DNA of 64,000 bases from a virus (Duplodnaviria; Caudoviricetes): IMG/VR virus record IMGVR_UViG_3300032038_000012, positions 32,001 to 96,000 of that record; one strand, 5' to 3'. Made by a program: the position numbers and the translations under genes. Position 1 is the stretch's first letter, and each line of letters starts with the position of its first letter. Below the pieces are notes generated by a model. It was given only the letters and a program-made list of their open reading frames with translations, was not told the origin of the DNA and did not search any database. Positions 8,773 to 37,257 of the stretch are shown piece after piece.

Positions 8773-9345
8773 ATGTTAGAAGATAAAACTGTAATAACAG
8801 TATCAAACAGAGATAATGGAAGCGTTGGATATACAATCCCAGATTTAGGAAACTTACACAGAACTTTCCAACCTGGAGAAACAAAAGAAGTTACTATGGG
8901 AGAATTAAGAAAGCTATCTTATTTACCTGGCGGACTTAGCATATTAAAGAATTTATTAATTATAGATAATAAAGAAGCAGTAGAAGAATTAATAGGTGAA
9001 GTTGAACCTGAATATTATTATACTGAAGAAGATATTAAAAAATTAATTACTGAAGGTTCATTAGAACAATTTGAAGATTGTTTAGATTTTGCCCCAAGAG
9101 GAACAATTAATTTATTAAAGAAATTATCTGTTGAAATGAAATTAAATGATATGGCAAAGAGAAAAGCATTACTTGCGGCAACAGGATTTAATGTTACAAA
9201 CGCAATTAATGCAAATGAAGCTAGTGTAGAAGAAGACTCTGATGAGACTGAAACAAAATCAAAGAGAAGAGCTGCATCAATAAAAGATGACAGTGATACA
9301 AAAACTAGAAGAACTACTACAAGTAGATACAATGTAGTTAAATAA
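8773..9345 (+). CDS. Hypothetical head-completion region protein
   Basis: Intact ORF with AAGGAG RBS. Confidence 0.6.
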   Translation: MLEDKTVITVSNRDNGSVGYTIPDLGNLHRTFQPGETKEVTMGELRKLSYLPGGLSILKNLLIIDNKEAVEELIGEVEPEYYYTEEDIKKLITEGSLEQFEDCLDFAPRGTINLLKKLSVEMKLNDMAKRKALLAATGFNVTNAINANEASVEEDSDETETKSKRRAASIKDDSDTKTRRTTTSRYNVVK

Positions 9346-27588: not shown

Positions 27589-30500
27589 ATGAATAACTAT
27601 GAAGATAATATATTAGAAGCAATAGAAACTATTGTAGATAATTCTATTGCTAAATCTAATTATGATAGAACAATTCAAGCTACAATTATTAAAATAGTAG
27701 ATAAGTCTTTGGGGCAATATAATGTTAAGTATCAAGATAGTTATTTTGATGCTTTTTCAATAGATACAACAATAGAATATGTTGAAGGAACTAATGTTTA
27801 TATATTAGTGCCTAACGGTGACATGTCTAAAGATAAAACTATTTTAGGTGCGGTTGATGGATATAAAATTCAAGGTGTTACCGCAATTACAGATGCGGAT
27901 GCATCGGACCCAGTTGGATACAACTGTGTTAATAGTGAAGTAAGTTTTGAATTATGTTCTTATACAGAAGAACAAAATATCGTATTGTACGATAAAGATA
28001 GCGAAATTAATTTAATAAATTTAGATAGTGAGGCTTTAAAGAATTTTTTACAAAATAGTTCTCAATTAGTTGCGGGAGCTTCGTTTAGAACAAATTTACC
28101 TGGAGAACAAAGAATAAAAGGTAATTATGGTATTATTTTTGAATTAGGTTTTAAAGCTCAGGTTTCAGATGAAATTATGTTAAAAAAATTTATTATAGAC
28201 ATAGATAGAATGAGTGGTAATCCATATGTTTTAAATAATGCAACTCCGCAACTTGGATATTTTGAAATTGATGGAGAAAATTTTGAATATATAAATAATG
28301 TTACAATATTTGAAAAAGATTTCCCTTATCAAGCGACAGATAAAGATAATGATATTTTTATTTCTGAGCTTCAAATTTTTGGATCTAATAGAATAAGTGA
28401 AGAAGAATATAATGTTGCACGATTAGTAATAAATACGCCTCAAGGTAATTATTTTACAGAACAAGACAGTCTTCAAACAACTAAGCAACTTGTAGCAAAA
28501 ATAAAAACCAATGGTGCAGAAATGGATTTATCTAAATCTAAAGTGGAATATTATTGGTTTAAAGAAAATGATGATATTACAATAGAAAGTCAAAAATATA
28601 ATTTTTATGGAGGCGAAGGCTGGGAATGCTTAAATGATTTTACACTAATTGATGGTAATCCTAATTTAGTAACATGGAGTTCAGCATCTAATATATGGAA
28701 TATTGCAAAAGCAAGTGTTAGAAGTGAACAAGTTCAATATAAATGTATTGTTGTTTATAATAATATTATTTTACAAAGATTAGTTACAATAAAGAATCAG
28801 GGGGCTGCATTTTCTATAAAAATAGTTTCAGATTTAGGAGCTGATTTTATAGATGGACTAGGATATCCTACATTAACTTGTATGATAAATAATTCAGAAG
28901 AACCTTTAACGGGATATAGATACGTATGGTCTAGAACAGATAATAATGGACTATATATGAAGTTAGATGAAACCACAGAAGAAAATTTAGCATATCAAAA
29001 TGCTTATAATAATTATGAGAATTTATTAACTCAAATTCAAACTGAACAAGTCTTCCCAAATGCGGTTGCCGCACAGTTAGAAGAGTATAAAAATGAATTT
29101 GAGGCTTTTGAAAAAATAACAAGAGTTGATAAAAATAAAATATATAAAATAAATACAAGTGAAATTACTAATTATATGCACTATAAATGTTCTGTATATT
29201 ATAATAATGAATATGTTGGAACTGAATCTATTATTTTATATAACACAAATTCAACTAATCAAGATTATTTCATTCAATTAGTTAATGGCACTCAAATTTT
29301 TAAATATGATGAAAATGGTATATCACCTTGTGATGAAACTAAAGATAATCCACAAGAAATATTACCACTTCAATTTAATATTATAAATAAAGAAGGATTA
29401 GATGTTACTAATGAGATTTTAGAAAAGAGTCAAATAGAATGGGAAGTCCCAACTGAAAATACTTTAATTACAGTTTCAGGGGCGCTAACCGCAAGACAAT
29501 TGCTTTTTACTATTGACAATTTTTATGATAATACAAAAAATAATAATGAAATTAAATTAACAGTAACATATAAGAAACAAAAATTGGTTGCTTATACTAA
29601 TTTAAGTTTTATAAAAGAAGGAGATATTGGAACAAATGGAACAGATTACTATTGTAAAATTGTTCCTAATACATCTCAAAAGGTTGATTATCCAATGATA
29701 GTTAATGGGACTTTAAATTACACTCCAGCTCAACAAGGAAAATGGTTTAAAGCTCAAATTTGGAGAGGTGGTAAATTAATATTTGAAGGAGCTGAATCTG
29801 GAGCTTCTATTGAGAGTGATAGAGCTGTTATTAGATGGGGAGTTCAAAAAAATAAGTATAATGCTCAAGTATCAGACCCAAGTTCAATAATAGTAACTAA
29901 TAATATCTTTAGTACAACGGGGTATTATATTGAAGATGGTTCTGGCGCAAATTGCCCTGCTAATATTGTTCAATGTAAAGTCACTTATAAAGGAATAGAT
30001 TATTTTGTAACTATTCCAGTTATTACAGTTTCTTATAATGATCCTTATCAAATATATTTAGAGCCAAGAACAGGATTTAATTTTGTAACATATAGTTCTG
30101 ATGGTAGATATCCTAAGTATAATGATAGTAAGCCTTTTGAAATTCAAATATTGCAAACGATTAATGGAGTAAAAGAAAATATTAGTTTACTTCGTTCAAA
30201 TCAATATGGAGTAAAATTTGAATGGTATATAAGAGGTCAAGTTTATGATACTAAAACGGGCTTATGAGTAGACAAAACCATGTTTACTATTGATGAAACT
30301 GAAGTTTTAGAACAAAATAAAATTAAGTTAATCCCTATATCAGAATATTCTGGGGAATGTGTTTCAACTGCATTAGAGTGTATTTGTAAAAAGAAATCTG
30401 ATAATACCACAGTAATTGGAAAAATTCATATTCCAATACATTGTATGTTAAATAGATATGCAAATGCGGCAATTAATGACTGGGATGGAAATAGTGTAAC

Positions 30501-31755
30501 AATTAATGATACAGATGGTTATATATTAACTCCGCAAGTTGGGGCCGGAACAAAAGATGAAAACAATCGTTTTACCGGAATGTTAATGGGTTCTGTTAAA
30601 GATAATTCTAATGGAGTTACTAAAACTGGATTGTTAGGTTACGACACTGGACAACAAAGTTTATTTTTAGATGCTGAATCAGGTGGTGCGATATTCGGAA
30701 AAGGAAATGGTGGTCAAATTATAATTGATCCGCAAAGTAATAAGAGTTATTTATTTAGTCATGACTATTGAAAAAGTTATAATGAAAAAGGTTTTCCAAT
30801 TAATTATGAAGACTCTAATAAAGATAATAAGGGAATGTTGATAGATTTAGCAACACCGCAAATTGTATTTGGAAGTGGTAATTTTAAAGTTGATAAAGAT
30901 GGTAATGTTACTTGTGGGGATATGTTAACCTCAAGAGGAATTTTAACAATGTTGAGATATGAAAATGAGGGGTTTGTAGGATGGGATTGAAACCTTTTTT
31001 CTACAGATTATATATCAAAAACAGCAAGCTCTACATCAGATGGTTATACACAAACAATAACATTAGCTTGTCCAAATTATTTTGAATATGAACCTCATTT
31101 ATTGTTATTCTCTTGTTTTATTCCAGAAGGATTTTCTTTATATAAAGCTGTTTGTACTTTAGAACAATATTCTTATAATGATCCTTATAGTATAGATTCT
31201 TGGTATGGAGAAAGATCAGGAGACATTCCAAGTTGGATAACTAGGACAACAACTGAACAGGAAACTAGTTTAACTGTACCTGGCTCAGCAACAGATGCAC
31301 CGGCAGTATGGTTTGTCCCATATGAAGCATATACAAGAGTCGTAGGTAGAGGACATATGAGTGGGGGATATAATAGATATAGTGTTGATACTTCTCAATG
31401 TATAAGACTAGGAGTGGCAGATTCAGGTTTCCCTGATGCGGTTACAACACCTCAGACTACAGTATTATCTAAAACAATAGATTTTTCTGGAGCAATAACA
31501 AATAATTATTTAGTTCCTGGACAAGTAAATTTATTGGCTGTTATGCCAGGAAACATATTGGCTAAAGTTCCATTGACTTGGAATTCTGTAAGTTTTACGG
31601 AGACAGAATATGCTCATACCACAACTTATAATACATGGAGAGCCTCTCAAGGGACAGCAAATTTAAAAGCTTGATGTAGAAGACGAACTGGATATGTAAA
31701 AGCTCAAATTGTTTTGTATGGATATTATGATCCATCATTAGTTAATAATAGTTAG
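27589..31755 (+). CDS. Large tail (tip/baseplate) protein B, ~1388 aa, paralogue of A; TGA=Trp at 30265, 30769, 30988, 31672
   Basis: Single frame to TAG 31753; SHDY*KSYNEKGFPINYEDSNK aligns with A SKSYWKNYDTKGFPLNYEESNK. Confidence 0.8.
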
Positions 31756-31772: not shown

Positions 31773-32948
31773 ATGGCACAATTATCAAGTGAAGAAAGAA
31801 TTGCTAGAGTTGAACAAGCACCTGTTGAAGTGCAAACAATGGTAGCAAAAGCTTTTTTAAGAGATGATATTGACGATGAAGATGTTCAATATCTATTTAA
31901 TACAGACACTATTGAACAATTAAATGATAGTGAAAGTAATCAAGAAGTTGAGCATGTAAACGAAGAAGAGCCAGAAGGGATTGGTGCTGCGGGTTTTACA
32001 ATGAGAACTTCAAAGCCTAGTAATAATAAAAACTTTATTACAACAGGTTCAGGTGGATGGAATACATGTATTAAAGGATATCCAATGGATCCAAACGCAA
32101 ATGTTTTAGCAAATTGCGTTGGATACGCAAGTGGGAGATTTAATGAAATAATTAATATTGCTAGAGATCAAGGTGGTTGTACATATAAAACATTAAATTG
32201 TAATGCAGTAGGTTTCAAAGAAAGAGCGGAAGCAGCAGGACTTCAAACAGGTAGTACTCCAAGACGTGGAGCTATTATGTGTTGGGGAAATGGTGGAGCT
32301 GGACATGTTGCAATTGTTGAAAGAGTAGATAGCAATAATCAAGTTTATACTTCTGAATCTGGATATGGTTCAACAGCATTTTGGAATCAAATAAGAACAA
32401 ATAATAATGGTAGATGGGGATGTTCAAGTAATTATTACTTTAGATGTTTCATTTATTTACCAAGTGATGTTCAACAAAAAATTGATGGCGGACAACCCGC
32501 CCCAACACCTACTCCAGGACCAAGTAGCAAATACAATATAGGAGATAAAGTAGTTATTAATGGGCCTTTATATACTAGTTCAAATGCGGCAAGTCCTGCA
32601 GGAAGAACTGGAGATAAGGTTACTAATATAACTAGAAAAAATCCTGGAAGTGCGCATCCTTATAATACAACAGGAGATTTAGGATGGATGGATGAAAGTT
32701 CTATTAAGCCATATGCAGAACCAACTCCTCAACCTGCACCACAGCCTAAAGGACTTCAGGTTGGAGATACAGTTGTTATTGTAGGAACTGGTAATGGAAG
32801 TTCATATGGTGATAGTAACACAGCATATGGAATTGGATGGACTAGACAAATCTTAAGAATCTGGAGTGGAAGATCATTCCCATATCAAGTTGGAAACGGC
32901 TCTGGTACAACTGGATTCTATAGAGCAGAAGCTTTACAAAAAAAATAA
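31773..32948 (+). CDS. CHAP-domain peptidoglycan hydrolase with acidic N-terminus and two SH3-like C-terminal domains
   Basis: ANCVGYA.GRF (Cys), GHVAIVE (His), SESGY; Pro-rich linkers; AAGGAGG RBS before ATG 31773. Confidence 0.85.
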   Translation: MAQLSSEERIARVEQAPVEVQTMVAKAFLRDDIDDEDVQYLFNTDTIEQLNDSESNQEVEHVNEEEPEGIGAAGFTMRTSKPSNNKNFITTGSGGWNTCIKGYPMDPNANVLANCVGYASGRFNEIINIARDQGGCTYKTLNCNAVGFKERAEAAGLQTGSTPRRGAIMCWGNGGAGHVAIVERVDSNNQVYTSESGYGSTAFWNQIRTNNNGRWGCSSNYYFRCFIYLPSDVQQKIDGGQPAPTPTPGPSSKYNIGDKVVINGPLYTSSNAASPAGRTGDKVTNITRKNPGSAHPYNTTGDLGWMDESSIKPYAEPTPQPAPQPKGLQVGDTVVIVGTGNGSSYGDSNTAYGIGWTRQILRIWSGRSFPYQVGNGSGTTGFYRAEALQKK

Positions 32949-32960
32949 TAGGAGGTTAAT

Positions 32961-33410
32961 ATGTTAGAAGCAATTATGGAAACTTTAAGAATTATGGGTT
33001 GGCTAGGAATTGTATTAGGAATTCTTGCAACAGTTAATTTAGTTTGTGGAACAGTTTATAATATCAATGACGGTCAAACATTTTCTTGGAAAAAGTTTTT
33101 CAAAGGAATTTTAAAAGTTGTAATCTTTTATATGAGTGCTGTATTTGTAAGTGTTGCATTTACAATGCTACCTTATATTAATACAATGATTACAGACGCT
33201 TTTGGAGTAGTATTACTTTCAAGCGAATTATTAAACACTTTATCAAGTGTGGCAGTTTTAGGAATTGTAGTAGCTTCAGTAGTTACTCAAGCTAAAAAGG
33301 CTTTTGAAAATATTAGTAAATTATCTACTATGTCTTCAGATGTAGAAGTAATTACTTGGGATGTAGTAGAACCAGAAGAAGATGAAATGGAAGAAGAAGC
33401 CTCTGTATAA
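32961..33410 (+). CDS. Holin
   Basis: About three hydrophobic segments, FSWKKF..G..K motif, charged C-terminus, adjacent to lysin. Confidence 0.7.
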   Translation: MLEAIMETLRIMGWLGIVLGILATVNLVCGTVYNINDGQTFSWKKFFKGILKVVIFYMSAVFVSVAFTMLPYINTMITDAFGVVLLSSELLNTLSSVAVLGIVVASVVTQAKKAFENISKLSTMSSDVEVITWDVVEPEEDEMEEEASV

Positions 33411-33427
33411 GAGGTTTCTTCATTTTT
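33395..33427 (+). terminator. Possible terminator
   Basis: GAAGCCTCT-GTATA-AGAGGTTTC followed by T-rich tract. Confidence 0.45.
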
Positions 33428-33441
33428 AAGGAGGGACAATA

Positions 33442-33942
33442 ATGAGTAGTATAAAAAAGATTAGAACTACTGAAGGAGATTTATCTATTGATTATAATAG
33501 TTTAGATAATCTTCCTACCATCCCTAGTAAAGTTAGTGATTTAACAAATGATAGTGGATTTATAACAAAAAGTGTTAGTAGTTTAGATAATTATTATACA
33601 AAAACTGAGGTTGATGAAAAAGAGGTTGAAGTTACATTAAATGGGGCTTCAGTTAGTTCACCTAGTTTTTACGCACCTACAACAGCGGGAACATCAGGAC
33701 AAGTCTTAAAATCTAGCGGAAATGGCGCACCTGTTTGGGGGAGTGTAGATGTAGACGCGAAAGAAGATAAATCAAATAAAGTTACTTCAATGACTAGTTC
33801 AAGCACAGACCTTCAATATCCTAGTGCAAAATGTGTATACGACTGGATGTCAGGAATAAAGATTGTAGCTTTAACTCAAACTCAATATGATGCTTTAACA
33901 ACTAAAGATGCTAATACTTTATATTTTATAACAGGAGCATAA
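33442..33942 (+). CDS. Small fibre-type structural protein
   Basis: IPSKVSDLTNDSGFIT, GTSGQVLKS.G.G.P.W, YPSAK and LTQTQYDAL..KD.NTLYFI motifs typical of phage fibre/adaptor proteins. Confidence 0.55.
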   Translation: MSSIKKIRTTEGDLSIDYNSLDNLPTIPSKVSDLTNDSGFITKSVSSLDNYYTKTEVDEKEVEVTLNGASVSSPSFYAPTTAGTSGQVLKSSGNGAPVWGSVDVDAKEDKSNKVTSMTSSSTDLQYPSAKCVYDWMSGIKIVALTQTQYDALTTKDANTLYFITGA

Positions 33943-33955
33943 GGGGGTTTTAAAC

Positions 33956-34978
33956 ATGGCTCGTAGTGAGATACACGTAGGAGACGATTTATCTGGTAAA
34001 ACTTTATTCTTTAACTTCCAAGAGACGGGTGATTTTCAAGGTAACTCAAATGGAGATGCTTTTACTACTTCTGGCGGTTATGTTTTAAATTATTATCATG
34101 CAGGGGCAACAGGAGTAGAAGAATTAATAGAAATAACTGGACCAAATGACTTTTATGTTGCTGTTTTTTCAAACTGGAGATGGAGGATTGATCCAAATCT
34201 TAGTGAATATACTCTTCCTGAAGATGCAGGAACAGTAACCGCGATAGATACATCAATAGGAATTTTAGATAAAGTAAAATGGGGAAACCCTTTTACTTCA
34301 AAAGTTTATTTAGGTAATAATGAAATTTCTCAAATTTATTTAGGGACTACTGCAATTCATAAAGCTAATTTAGGTGAGAATGAATGTTCTATTGCCTCAT
34401 TCATAGTAAGAAGTAGTGAATTTATTTTTGAAAGAGGACAGACATGGAAAAACTGGATTGATCAAGCTAAATATTGGACTTCTTCAGATAATTTTAGTTA
34501 CAATGAAAATGGAGTATATTATGGTGAAGCTAGTTTATATCAAAAACCTGGATGGGGAAGTGTATCCTATACAGATTTAATTACTGAAGGCGGAGAATAT
34601 GGTGCAGCATCAGCATGTTTAAGTCCAGATACATTAATAAAAACAGATAAAGGACTAGTAGAGATTTCTACACTTTCAGTAGGAGATGAATTAACTGAAA
34701 AGAATATAGTAGAAAAAATAGTTGCTCATAATAGAGAGCAATATTATATTATTACACTTGAAAATGATGACACTATAAAAGCTTCGAATGACCACTTATT
34801 TATAAGCGGAAATGAAATAATAAGAACTGAACAACTTGAAAAAGGACAACTTTTAAATAAATTAAAAATAAAAAATATAGAATTGGTAAATGAACCAATG
34901 ACTATGTATGAAATAAAAACAAGCACAAATCAATATACATTATTCAATGATATAATTTGTGAATGTGAAAATATTTAA
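33956..34978 (+). CDS. Protein with C-terminal Hint (intein/Hedgehog-like) domain
   Basis: From 34616: [19 protein letters not shown] (block A), IKASNDHLF (block B), MYEIKT (block F); no terminal His-Asn. Confidence 0.75.
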
Positions 34979-34991
34979 GGAGGAAATTAAT

Positions 34992-36149
34992 ATGGCAGTT
35001 TTTGGAATAGATATTAGTGCACATAACGCAGGTTTAAATTTACAAGCTGCTAAAAATGAAGGTGTGCGTTTTGCAATTTTAAGAGCAGGATATACAGGTT
35101 ATGGAAATGGTATTAGCAAAGCAAAAGATACACAATTTGAAAACTTTTATTCACAATGTAAAAACTTAGGTATCCCAGTTGGTGCATATTGGTTTTCATG
35201 CGCAAATACTTATCAAAAAGGTGTAGATGAAGCAAACTGGATGTATGATAATTGTTTAAGAGGAAAATCATTTGAATATCCAATTTACTTAGATGTAGAA
35301 GAAGATGCTGGAGGTAGACATTATTTAAGCGGAGCAGGAAAAGACGCGGTTACCGCAGGTATCAAAGGATTTTGCGAGACTCTTGAAAAGAAAGGTTTTT
35401 ATGTGGGGGTTTATGCCAATAGTGATTGGTTTAATCGTTTAATTGATGCTAGTATTCCAAATAGATTTGACTGTTGGTTAGCAAACTGGAGCTCTCATAA
35501 TCCAGGTTCACCAGCACATGGAATATGGCAATTCGGTGGAGAAACTAATAGAGTAAGAAGCAATAGAGTTGCAGGTATGGTGATCGACCAAGATTATGCT
35601 TATAAAGATTATCCTAATATTATGAGAAGTGGTAACTTTAATGGATGCGGCGGAGGTGCTCCTACACCTGCCCCACAACCTCAACCAACCCCTTCTAAAT
35701 CTGTTGATGAGTTAGCAAGAGAAGTAATCGAAGGAAAATGGGGTAATGGAAACGACAGAAAAAATAGACTTCAAGCCGCAGGGTATAATTATAGTGAAGT
35801 CCAAGCAAAAGTAAACGAAATCTTAAATGGTGGAAATAAACCAGCACCAAAAAAATCTAATGAAGAAATAGCTAGAGAAGTTATAAATGGTCAATGGGGA
35901 AACGGTGAAGATAGAAGAAATAGATTAACTCAAGCTGGATATAATTATTCTGAAGTCCAAGCTATTGTAAATAAAATTTTAAATGGCGGTTCAAGTAAAC
36001 CATCTGCAGAGTATTATACAGTTAAAAGTGGAGATACTTTAAGTGGTATTGCCGCAAGATATGGAACAACAGTAAAACAATTAGTTGCTTGGAATAATAT
36101 TTCAAATCCTAACTTAATTTATCCAGGACAAAAATTTAGAGTAAGGTAG
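34992..36149 (+). CDS. Endolysin: GH25 muramidase + 2x CW_7 + LysM
   Basis: GIDIS, GAYWFS, YLDVE; two [24 protein letters not shown] repeats; [31 protein letters not shown]. Confidence 0.92.
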
Positions 36150-36168
36150 TTATAGCCTTACTCTTTTT
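36138..36168 (+). terminator. Rho-independent terminator
   Basis: AGAGTAAGG...CCTTACTCT + T tract. Confidence 0.75.
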
Positions 36169-36276: not shown

Positions 36277-36636
36277 ATGAAAATAATGAGTGATAATACT
36301 ATTGGCATAAATCGCGGTGACGAATTATTATTTGATTATCAGATTTATAATGGTAATGACATTTACGTTTTCGGTGAAGGAGACGAAGTTGGATTTTATC
36401 TTTATAAAAAAGGTCAATACAATAAAGAACCGATTATTCAAGAAGTGTTTACCCCTGAGGCTGGAGATGAAGTTGTAGAAATCCGCATTTCTGCAGACGA
36501 TATGGATATTGGAGGATATACTAATATACAACAAGAATACTGATATGAAATTACTTTAAATGATGAAGTTACTTTAGGTTATGATAGCGATGGACCTAAA
36601 GTGTTAATATTATATCCTACAGGAAAGAAAATCTAA
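36277..36636 (+). CDS. NRGD-family small adaptor protein, paralogue 1 (119 aa; TGA=Trp at 36541)
   Basis: EY*YEITLND..LGYD.DGPK...LYP aligns with YWYEIELN and YWYEISLND of paralogues 2 and 3. Confidence 0.8.
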
Positions 36637-36863
36637 TGAATAATACAGGAAGAATTTTATCCAAAGTCGGAAAAGGGCAAATAGTAAGTAAAAAACCTTT
36701 ATTAATAAGTATAAAATCAAAAAATAATTTATATGGAAAATTAAATATAGGAACTAGAAGAATTATTGAGTATATTCACTATGAACCCTATGTAGTAAAA
36801 ACAACTTTATTTTTTAGAACTCAAGCCTCTGTCGAAGAAAGTGAGTTGACGATAAGTGGATAA
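36636..36863 (+). CDS. Hypothetical protein
   Basis: TAATG-coupled to the extended upstream gene. Confidence 0.55.
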   Translation: MNNTGRILSKVGKGQIVSKKPLLISIKSKNNLYGKLNIGTRRIIEYIHYEPYVVKTTLFFRTQASVEESELTISG

Positions 36864-37257
36864 AAAAATTGAATATATAAATGTAGAAGGTATAACATAT
36901 CAAGTTTCAGACCCATCAACTCCTGAATTCGTAAAACAAATTAGTCAAGAAGAAATTTACAATTGAAATAATCCTGACTATGAAAACGAAGATAATAAGC
37001 CATCTATAAATGGAGTTACTTTAATTGGAGATATAACATCAGAAGAATTAGGTTTAGATGCGGACAAAACTTATCTTTACCAACAAACAGTAGCTTCGGA
37101 TACATGGATAATAGTTCATAATTTAAATAAATATCCATCAGTATCAGTTATAGATAGTGCAGGGAATGAAGTGATTGGAGAAGTTTCTTATGATGATAAA
37201 AATCAAGTAACTTTAAAATTTGAAGGTGGCTTTAAAGGAGTTGCCACTTTAAATTAA
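36856..37257 (+). CDS. Small structural protein absent from the ORF track (133 aa; TGA=Trp at 36964)
   Basis: GTG start; MDKKIEYINVEG...ISQEEIYN*NN...NKPSINGVTLIG...SDTWIIVHNLNKYPSVSVIDSAGNEVIGEV...F.G.A.LN, TAA. Confidence 0.7.

Follow-up and report, generated by a model that had tools for sequence, protein, structure and literature searches.

The bacteria in which TGA classically encodes tryptophan, Mycoplasma and Spiroplasma, have no peptidoglycan, and their phages therefore need no muramidase. In phages of such natively code-4 hosts TGA is read as Trp, as it is in the phage described here, a tailed and probably virulent gut phage with a complete genome of 135,791 bp (~136 kb) and a G+C content of 31%. 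Unlike them, this phage carries lysins and its own suppressor, and TGA is a minority Trp codon in one module.

Closer parallels are the TGA-recoded gut phages for which standard-code Firmicutes are the predicted hosts (Borges et al., 10.1101/2021.08.26.457843), and the phage is a fresh instance of this already published class. By descriptive traits it is like the Agate phages of that study (~127 kb, animal guts) in size class and low G+C. The Agate phages are also similar in having in-frame TGA in structural but not in replication genes, a suppressor tRNA(UCA) and a predicted Firmicutes host, given at phylum level only. The present phage differs from the Agate and other phages of Borges et al. 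in that its lysis genes are without TGA, and its lysis cassette revealed no recoded membrane protein. In the Jade phages, too, a phage tRNA reads UGA as Trp, but there the tRNA(UCA) is part of a "code-change module" with TrpRS and RF1 (Borges et al.; the pair was tested in PMC12636597). Our phage encodes neither TrpRS nor a release factor; its tRNA has a spare CCA-loop arm instead.

The terminase large subunit (TerL) is 45-47% identical to those of phAss-1 and of the large siphophages H1, EF1 and E3 of Enterococcus and Geobacillus; the hosts of the TerL relatives are Enterococcus, Geobacillus and Bacillus. These siphophages are of similar size and are not reported here as recoded. The genome of phAss-1 (Phassvirus group, 135,976 bp, human gut; PMC10607447) is also similar in size, but phAss-1 recodes TAG to Gln and the present phage TGA to Trp. 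The sole megablast match in the phage collection was one 12-kb human-faecal fragment, at 77% identity.

We think it highly likely that this phage infects a Gram-positive gut bacterium which is walled, low in G+C and uses the standard code, that it is equipped with a holin and two peptidoglycan hydrolases, and that its TGA=Trp codons are decoded by its own tRNA(UCA). TGA read as Trp beside intact wall-cutting enzymes is then no paradox, because the phage brings a TGA-reading tRNA into a walled, very probably standard-code host.

The lysis block and its neighbours

The window, that is the whole stretch of DNA analysed (64,000 nucleotides), holds a lysis block at 31773-36149. The following features were found in and around it:

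27589-31755, plus strand: large tail protein of 1388 aa, immediately 5' of the lysis block; one open reading frame in translation table 4
31773-32948, plus strand: CHAP peptidoglycan hydrolase (Pfam CHAP) that ends in two SH3-like wall-binding repeats; AAGGAGG ribosome-binding site; no TGA
32961-33410, plus strand: candidate holin (149 aa) between the two lysin genes; three hydrophobic helices and an acidic C-terminus by hydropathy
33442-33942, plus strand: small tail-fibre-like protein within the block (Pfam Phage_tail_C, E 7.5e-14; phrog_1197, tail protein)
33956-34978, plus strand: protein of 340 aa; the C-terminal domain, from Cys221, is of the Hint type (intein-like autoprocessing), with Pfam matches under the cut-offs
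34992-36149, plus strand: endolysin with GH25 muramidase, two CW_7 repeats and LysM (Pfam; phrog_291, E 3.9e-62); no TGA
36277-37257, plus strand: three small genes 3' of the endolysin; soluble, tail-fibre-like products in phrogs of unknown function

The original prediction had named two lysins and a holin here, and both lysins are plainly present. The CHAP domain matches its Pfam profile with E 1.5e-13 (51.5 bits against a gathering cut-off of 26), and on alignment with the PcsB CHAP domain its active-site motifs are intact: GHVAIV with the His, SES with the Glu and, upstream, the cysteine of NCVGY. In the endolysin all three domains are above their gathering cut-offs of 27, 25 and 20.9 bits, with GH25 at 74.1 (E 2.3e-20), CW_7 at 149.7 (E 1.8e-44) and LysM at 70.8 (E 9e-20). 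The GIDIS and LDVEE motifs are seen in its GH25 domain, for which we presume the catalytic residues to be those of Cpl-1. The enzyme resembles Cpl-7, the endolysin of Streptococcus phage Cp-7 (PDB 5i8l, 4cvd), in which GH25 is likewise followed by CW_7 repeats; the repeats align over their full length with those of 5i8l. It differs from Cpl-7 in having two CW_7 repeats in place of three and an extra LysM at the C-terminus. Translation starts at ATG 34992, with AAGGAGG ahead of it, and not at GTG 34959; no signal peptide or membrane segment was seen in the protein.

The holin is upheld as a candidate. Its profile matches are weak (phrog_199, E 4e-4; TIGR01593, E 0.002 and 18 bits against a cut-off of 40), and pairwise comparison with the holin of a prophage (locus L018) carrying one of the nearest endolysin relatives showed no similarity. 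The Hint domain of the 340-aa protein is recognised by PT-HINT, Hint_2 and Intein_splicing, all under the Pfam cut-offs, and by TIGR01445 (E 1.7e-4). Terminator-like hairpins lie 3' of the candidate holin (33393-33421) and at the 3' end of the endolysin gene (36138-36164).

The signals for expression gave a divided answer. The predicted AAGGAGG ribosome-binding sites were confirmed, AAGGAGG or AGGAGG preceding four of the block's five genes; genome-wide, 77 of 132 open reading frames of at least 80 aa have a Shine-Dalgarno core 5 nt or longer, compared with 1.4% among background windows. The extended -10 sigA promoters that were also claimed could not be upheld: between 31000 and 37600 the promoter-like sites number 23, fewer than the 32 +/- 5.5 of shuffled sequences, and none has the TG extension.

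TGA as a tryptophan codon and the tRNA that would read it

The tail gene directly upstream contains four in-frame TGAs (30265, 30769, 30988 and 31672). With table 11 it breaks into four open reading frames, and start codons follow some of the TGAs, so that one might take these for real stops, the tail and fibre genes being split or decayed in an ordinary code-11 phage. This we regard as scarcely credible. The four pieces are consecutive and in the same frame, their joints hold no ribosome-binding site, no TAA and no TAG, and full-length homologues of ~1385 aa (~1380-1390 aa) exist. When 19 homologues were aligned, TGA codons 893 and 1061 fell on invariant Trp columns, an invariance that is partly circular because many database homologues may have been translated with code 4. 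A check against TGG is afforded by one code-11 locus from IMG/VR (L001) and for one of the two conserved positions: it has TGG at 1061, and Lys, not Trp, is aligned at 893. Recoded sister phages have TGA where the phage has TGG, and code-11 sisters have TGG throughout. These alignments, together with a dedicated UCA tRNA, indicate that the TGAs of the tail gene are decoded as Trp. Selenocysteine and glycine were considered as readings and rejected, since the aligned residues are Trp and the acceptor stem, G73 and arms of the tRNA are those of tRNA-Trp.

To call the phage a code-4 phage, as was done originally, is right in that TGA is read as Trp and overstated in extent. TGA makes up ~10% of all Trp codons and occurs in roughly 14-17 genes of one module, which comprises the tail-tip, fibre and baseplate genes; there about one Trp in five is TGA. 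Counts of TGA to TGG are 29/135 in the fibre module, 0/57 in the head genes, 0/27 in the lysis genes and 2/116 in the replication genes. Part of the genome, the head module and nearly all of the replication arm, can be read in the standard code. Two of the three small genes 3' of the endolysin have one in-frame TGA each (36541 and 36964).

A scan of the phage for a suppressor tRNA had been proposed as a check, and one was found. The tRNA lies outside the window, at 8971-9066 of the genome, has the anticodon UCA and scores 61.6 bits with the Rfam tRNA model. It adjoins the phage tRNA-Trp(CCA), with which it has the D arm, anticodon stem, T arm and G73 in common, and this comparison marks it as a paralogue of that tRNA with the anticodon changed to UCA. 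The label "SeC" that ARAGORN gives it arises solely from its long arm. This extra arm, of 22 nt, reproduces the CUCCAAA anticodon loop of tRNA-Trp. Among 18 phage tRNAs all five pairs of its stem covary, with 91.5% of cells paired, a result reached by none of 500 shuffles, and U-CCA-A is retained in the loop. One distant relative, itself recoded, has an arm-bearing UCA tRNA; two code-11 relatives have only tRNA-Trp(CCA).

RF1, for which a scan had likewise been proposed, was not found: the complete genome has no PCRF domain (PF03462) and neither RF1 nor RF2. Nor does it encode a TrpRS or any other class-Ib synthetase (PF00579), so that the host enzyme would have to charge the tRNA(UCA). Copying the CCA loop in an extra arm would be pointless unless the charging enzyme looked for CCA, which argues that this enzyme belongs to a code-11 host. 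The extra arm is probably a handle for the host TrpRS, which would charge the tRNA through this CCA-loop arm; once charged, the tRNA would compete with host RF2 at TGA. That a phage tRNA-Trp(UCA) can insert Trp at UGA has been demonstrated (PMC12636597).

Candidate hosts and rival readings

The predicted walled Gram-positive host is in keeping with the intact lysins and with the candidate host genomes. The best genomic matches to the endolysin are in gut Bacilli, "Tenericutes" and Erysipelotrichaceae MAGs, at identities of only 42-61%. RF2 and penicillin-binding proteins are present in all seven candidate genomes (G001-G005, G112 and G040). In the five where the search went further (G001-G005), RF1 is present together with an RF2 that has the SPF and GGQ motifs, 4-7 Mur ligases each were found without in-frame TGA, and tRNA-Trp(CCA) has the loop CUCCAAA. 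The prfB and tRNA-Trp checks suggested at the outset, applied to these candidates, gave prfB in 7 of 7 and tRNA-Trp(CCA) in 5 of 5.

Our most likely host group is the family of G003, small-genome (0.4-1.7 Mb) gut Bacilli with OLE RNA, to which three weak and independent leads point: lysin similarity, co-binned contigs and OLE RNA. The GH25 catalytic domain finds its best match in a MAG of this family (locus L020), which also has a wall-binding domain in common with the phage. Contigs of related phages were binned with two MAGs of the family, G112 and G040; the G112 contig (C4) was considered as a prophage and rejected, all of its 44.6 kb being phage DNA. OLE RNA occurs in 40 of 61 genomes of the family, and the phage itself has a miniature OLE. 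Long phage-like matches were found in 2 of the 301 G003-family genomes and in 0 of 201 from the G002 family, a suggestive difference that is not significant. Locus L018, the prophage mentioned above, is integrated and contains genes for tail proteins, a holin, an endolysin and integrases. CRISPR spacers, also suggested for host prediction, gave no link: when 20 kb of phage DNA was compared with the 301 genomes, none of the 20 best short matches lay in a repeat array, and the E-values of this comparison are untrustworthy, as short AT-rich matches occur in 216 of the 301.

The original prediction had left two explanations side by side: that the host uses code 11 and UGA suppression is forced on it by the phage, or that the phage follows the code of a walled lineage which reads UGA as Trp natively or leakily. 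UGA is somewhat leaky in Bacillus subtilis, and low read-through without a suppressor is conceivable on that account; the alignment of in-frame TGA with Trp would also suit a host of this kind. But in such a host both the UCA tRNA and its CCA-mimicking arm would be needless, TGA would hardly be so rare among Trp codons and so nearly absent from head, lysis and replication genes, and RF2 is present in all seven candidate genomes, with prfB in 40 of 41 genomes of the favoured family. Phages on code-25 hosts, in contrast, have in-frame TGA in ~90% of their genes (Borges et al., 10.1101/2021.08.26.457843). We found no support for native decoding and consider it very improbable; the tRNA, its arm, the distribution of TGA and the RF2 of the candidates all favour suppression imposed by the phage on a code-11 host.

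Imposed suppression may still be the right kind of explanation with the wrong host, some other walled standard-code member of the Bacillota such as Oscillospiraceae or Lachnospiraceae among the Clostridia. This is quite possible, though less likely than not. OLE RNA is found in many anaerobic Bacillota, and some partial lysin matches are in MAGs of Oscillospiraceae, Clostridia and Lachnospiraceae. Five phages sharing the suppressor tRNA yielded no GH25 endolysin (only one of these records is complete); the enzyme may be a swapped cassette and would then tell little about the lineage at large. For phAss-1, a distant relative, Clostridia are the predicted hosts (PMC10607447). Against these points stand the three leads to the favoured family, and the candidates' G+C of 24-34% agrees with the 31% of the phage. 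It is unlikely, in turn, that the CHAP protein is a virion-associated entry hydrolase and not a second endolysin. Its gene is directly 3' of that of the large tail protein, it has an unusual acidic N-terminus of 70 aa, and it is kept in relatives without a GH25 lysin. In two related phages it is conserved at 79% and at 63-69% identity. Against an entry role, it adjoins the holin and has its own strong ribosome-binding site, its terminal wall-binding repeats are common to a prophage endolysin, and in relatives without the GH25 enzyme CHAP may be the only endolysin. Its C-terminal part and the end of the GH25 lysin at L020 have 37% identity. Either role requires a peptidoglycan wall.

Implications for recoded phages

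With both hydrolases taken as lysins, the phage would lyse its host with a holin and two wall-cutting enzymes, all encoded by codons that mean the same in either code. As the lysis genes are without TGA, recoding cannot gate lysis directly here. Such code-neutral lysis enzymes beside a recoded tail gene limit the literal use of the idea that recoding times lysis.

A more specific suggestion can be made, tentatively. The tRNA may carry a second, decoy "anticodon arm" that is read by the host TrpRS in place of the altered anticodon, so that no phage synthetase is needed, and the host may be the OLE-RNA-bearing family of gut Bacilli with very small genomes, which would receive a miniature OLE RNA from the phage. 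We found no published description of a suppressor tRNA with a decoy anticodon arm. The host lead is finer than the phylum level available in the literature.

A "Mycoplasma code" found together with enzymes that cut the cell wall offers a useful plausibility check for recoded phages. In the present case the apparent conflict resolves toward the published model, in which the phage temporarily changes the code of a walled standard-code host, and a suppressor tRNA with a spare CCA arm itself argues for a charging enzyme from a code-11 host.

The recoded tail gene and the lysis block

Read with the standard bacterial code (table 11), the tail gene directly upstream of the lysis block (window 27589-31755) falls into four same-frame pieces, and no ribosome-binding site was found in the joints between them. 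If TGA is read as Trp (table 4), the same stretch gives one protein of 1388 amino acids, and homologous tail proteins of about 1380-1390 amino acids are common. In an alignment of 20 sequences, TGA codons 893 and 1061 lie on invariant Trp columns, and the remaining two are within the variable C-terminus. Since database proteins may have been called with code 4, codons were also read in the loci of IMG/VR relatives as a check on the protein alignment. Six standard-code loci have TGG at all conserved Trp; in L001, one of these six, the 1061 site is TGG and a Lys is aligned at the 893 site. Seven recoded loci carry TGA at conserved Trp positions that are TGG in the present phage. These codons, together with a tRNA with anticodon UCA, uphold the original prediction that TGA means Trp here.

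The lysis block (window 31773-36149) comprises five complete ORFs by table 11, and table 4 leaves them unchanged.

Genes of the lysis block (window coordinates)
31773-32948: CHAP peptidoglycan hydrolase (Pfam E 1.5e-13); Cys, His and acidic motifs are present, and the C-terminus has two SH3-like repeats
32961-33410: candidate holin of 149 aa, whose three hydrophobic helices are followed by an acidic tail; assigned by architecture and position, profile matches being weak
33442-33942: small tail-fibre-like protein
33956-34978: 340-aa protein with a C-terminal Hint autoprocessing domain; profile matches all under family cut-offs
34992-36149: endolysin, a GH25 muramidase with two CW_7 repeats and a LysM domain

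The Hint domain starts at Cys221 and ends 18 aa short of the stop. Because there is no downstream extein, the protein is probably self-cleaving rather than splicing. Four of the five genes have AAGGAGG or AGGAGG ahead of the start codon, and a strong Shine-Dalgarno core is found at 77 of 132 ORFs genome-wide versus 1.4% of background windows. Terminator-like hairpins lie 3' of the holin and of the endolysin. Thus the lysin domains and motifs and the strong ribosome-binding sites described originally are confirmed, and the gene between the two lysins is a holin by architecture and position. The extended -10 promoters did not hold up: none was found around the lysis block, nor were promoter-like sites enriched there.

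The CHAP gene is kept in two related phages whose suppressor tRNA is nearly the same (G512 and G514), in the first of which it has one in-frame TGA. The GH25/CW_7/LysM endolysin was found in none of five suppressor-sharing relatives searched, only one of them a complete record, and for this reason it looks like an exchangeable cassette, recently swapped in. Such a swap may explain its freedom from TGA.

A suppressor tRNA with a spare anticodon loop

The virus record is a single sequence of 135,791 bp with 31% G+C, in which at least 100 bases at the start are repeated at the end; its ends are classed as direct terminal repeats (IMG/VR) and its completeness is 100% (CheckV). The terminal repeat holds an 89-nt tRNA-like sequence (genome 23-111 and 135687-135775), found by Rfam (45.6 bits) and not by ARAGORN. 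Genome 1-11 kb, outside the window, has about 25 tRNAs in an array. Within it, immediately 5' of tRNA-Trp(CCA), is the suppressor tRNA that the original prediction proposed to look for: a 96-nt tRNA with anticodon UCA (genome 8971-9066, plus strand). The two share the D arm, anticodon stem, T arm and G73, and tRNA(UCA) differs in having U for C34 and a 22-nt insertion. The insertion forms a stem of 5 bp capped by the loop CUCCAAA, which is exactly the tRNA-Trp anticodon loop of the phage copy and of all candidate hosts.

This extra arm is present in 19 of 24 IMG/VR phage tRNAs with the same UCA stem-loop (those 19 being 93-97 nt long) and in one distant recoded relative; two standard-code relatives have tRNA-Trp(CCA) only. 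When the present tRNA was aligned with 17 of the 19 (n=18), all five stem pairs showed covariation, 91.5% of cells were paired (0 of 500 shuffles scored as high), and the loop kept U-CCA-A. Neither a release factor gene, RF1 included, nor a TrpRS gene was found in the complete phage genome. Since the phage has no TrpRS and the loop copies the CCA anticodon loop, the most natural reading of the arm is that it offers a handle to a host TrpRS expecting CCA. A host TrpRS of this kind would argue for a code-11 host. A phage tRNA-Trp(UCA) has been demonstrated to insert Trp at UGA (PMC12636597); our literature search found no published account of a suppressor tRNA with a spare CCA-loop arm.

The phage also has a tmRNA (genome 987-1411, plus strand, outside the window; Rfam 72.7 bits), whose ARAGORN tag peptide ends VAFA. 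It could be relevant in a cell in which translation stalls or ends at recoded TGA codons.

Distribution of TGA and the probable host

TGA and TGG codons by module (ORFs of at least 100 aa, first 25 codons of each ignored)
Tail-tip, fibre and baseplate module: TGA 29, TGG 135
Head to tape measure: TGA 0, TGG 57
Five lysis-block genes: TGA 0, TGG 27
Replication arm: TGA 2, TGG 116

Recoding is uneven. TGA occurs in 13 of the 28 fibre-module genes, and its use there differs from that in the replication arm (p = 9e-6), where both TGAs belong to one small ORF lacking TGG (genome 98954-99400, minus strand; window 66954-67400, past the window end). In Agate phages an early gene has a recoded intron homing endonuclease (Borges et al., 10.1101/2021.08.26.457843). 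Replication genes stop with TAA or TAG only. The same study reports the same partial recoding, unlike what is seen in a phage whose host shares its code. Of the two routes originally offered, UGA suppression imposed on a code-11 host or a walled lineage with its own or leaky UGA-Trp decoding, the former is supported by tRNA(UCA) with its CCA-loop arm and by the confinement of TGA mainly to the fibre module.

The presence of peptidoglycan hydrolases argues for a host with a cell wall. This earlier reasoning is sound. Phages with related TerL proteins have Enterococcus, Geobacillus and Bacillus as hosts. A comparison with 185,579 species genomes places the nearest relatives of the endolysin (42-61% identity) in gut MAGs of small genome size, labelled Bacilli, Candidatus Onthousia, Tenericutes, Erysipelotrichaceae or Clostridia. 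One relative (L018) sits in an integrated prophage with tail, holin, endolysin and two serine integrases, which has tail-tip proteins in common with the present phage. All five genomes behind the endolysin loci encode RF1, RF2 (the latter carrying SPF and GGQ motifs) and tRNA-Trp(CCA), the host features singled out for checking being prfB and the tRNA-Trp anticodon. Each encodes 4-7 Mur ligases and gives 2-7 matches to the transpeptidase domain of penicillin-binding proteins; none of these genes contains TGA in frame.

Three independent leads, individually weak, favour one family of small-genome gut Bacilli, that of candidate genome G003. The GH25 domain most similar to that of the phage occurs in this family, joined there to wall-binding repeats homologous to those of the CHAP protein. 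In 2 of its 301 MAGs, versus 0 of 201 genomes of another candidate family, the bin includes a contig from a related phage: one is collinear over 44.6 kb, the other a TerL fragment with 70% protein identity. Finally, OLE RNA (RF01071) is encoded, at full length, by 40 of 61 genomes of the family versus 0 of 14 controls, and was not found in candidates G001 and G002; the phage has a miniature OLE. This 337-nt match (genome 5822-6158, plus strand, inside the tRNA array, outside the window; 109 bits, cut-off 50) retains the core motifs conserved on the 3' side, and the greater part of the 5' half is missing. Such a miniature form in a phage may be new. One MAG of the family has, besides a full-length copy, a second, shortened OLE-like RNA at a contig end (G040:C3:70010-70394; 385 nt, 154 bits). 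prfB is present in 40 of 41 family genomes examined, and both phage-contig MAGs have prfB and penicillin-binding proteins. Because the CRISPR route proposed originally gave no link between phage and host (of the 20 best short matches to phage DNA in 301 family genomes, none is in an array), the identity of the host remains inferred.

Probable suppression in a standard-code host

The conflict of codes is very probably settled by a suppressor that the phage brings into a Gram-positive cell using the standard code, as in the model of Borges et al. (10.1101/2021.08.26.457843). The demonstrated insertion of Trp at UGA by a phage tRNA-Trp(UCA) backs this model. The phage is of the kind of TGA-recoded phages that they describe; it fits their description of Agate phages, a likeness by description and not by clade placement. 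The recoded tail gene directly 5' of a code-neutral lysis cassette also matches their report. One may speculate that early stops in the tail gene lower lysis-gene expression until the suppressor accumulates.
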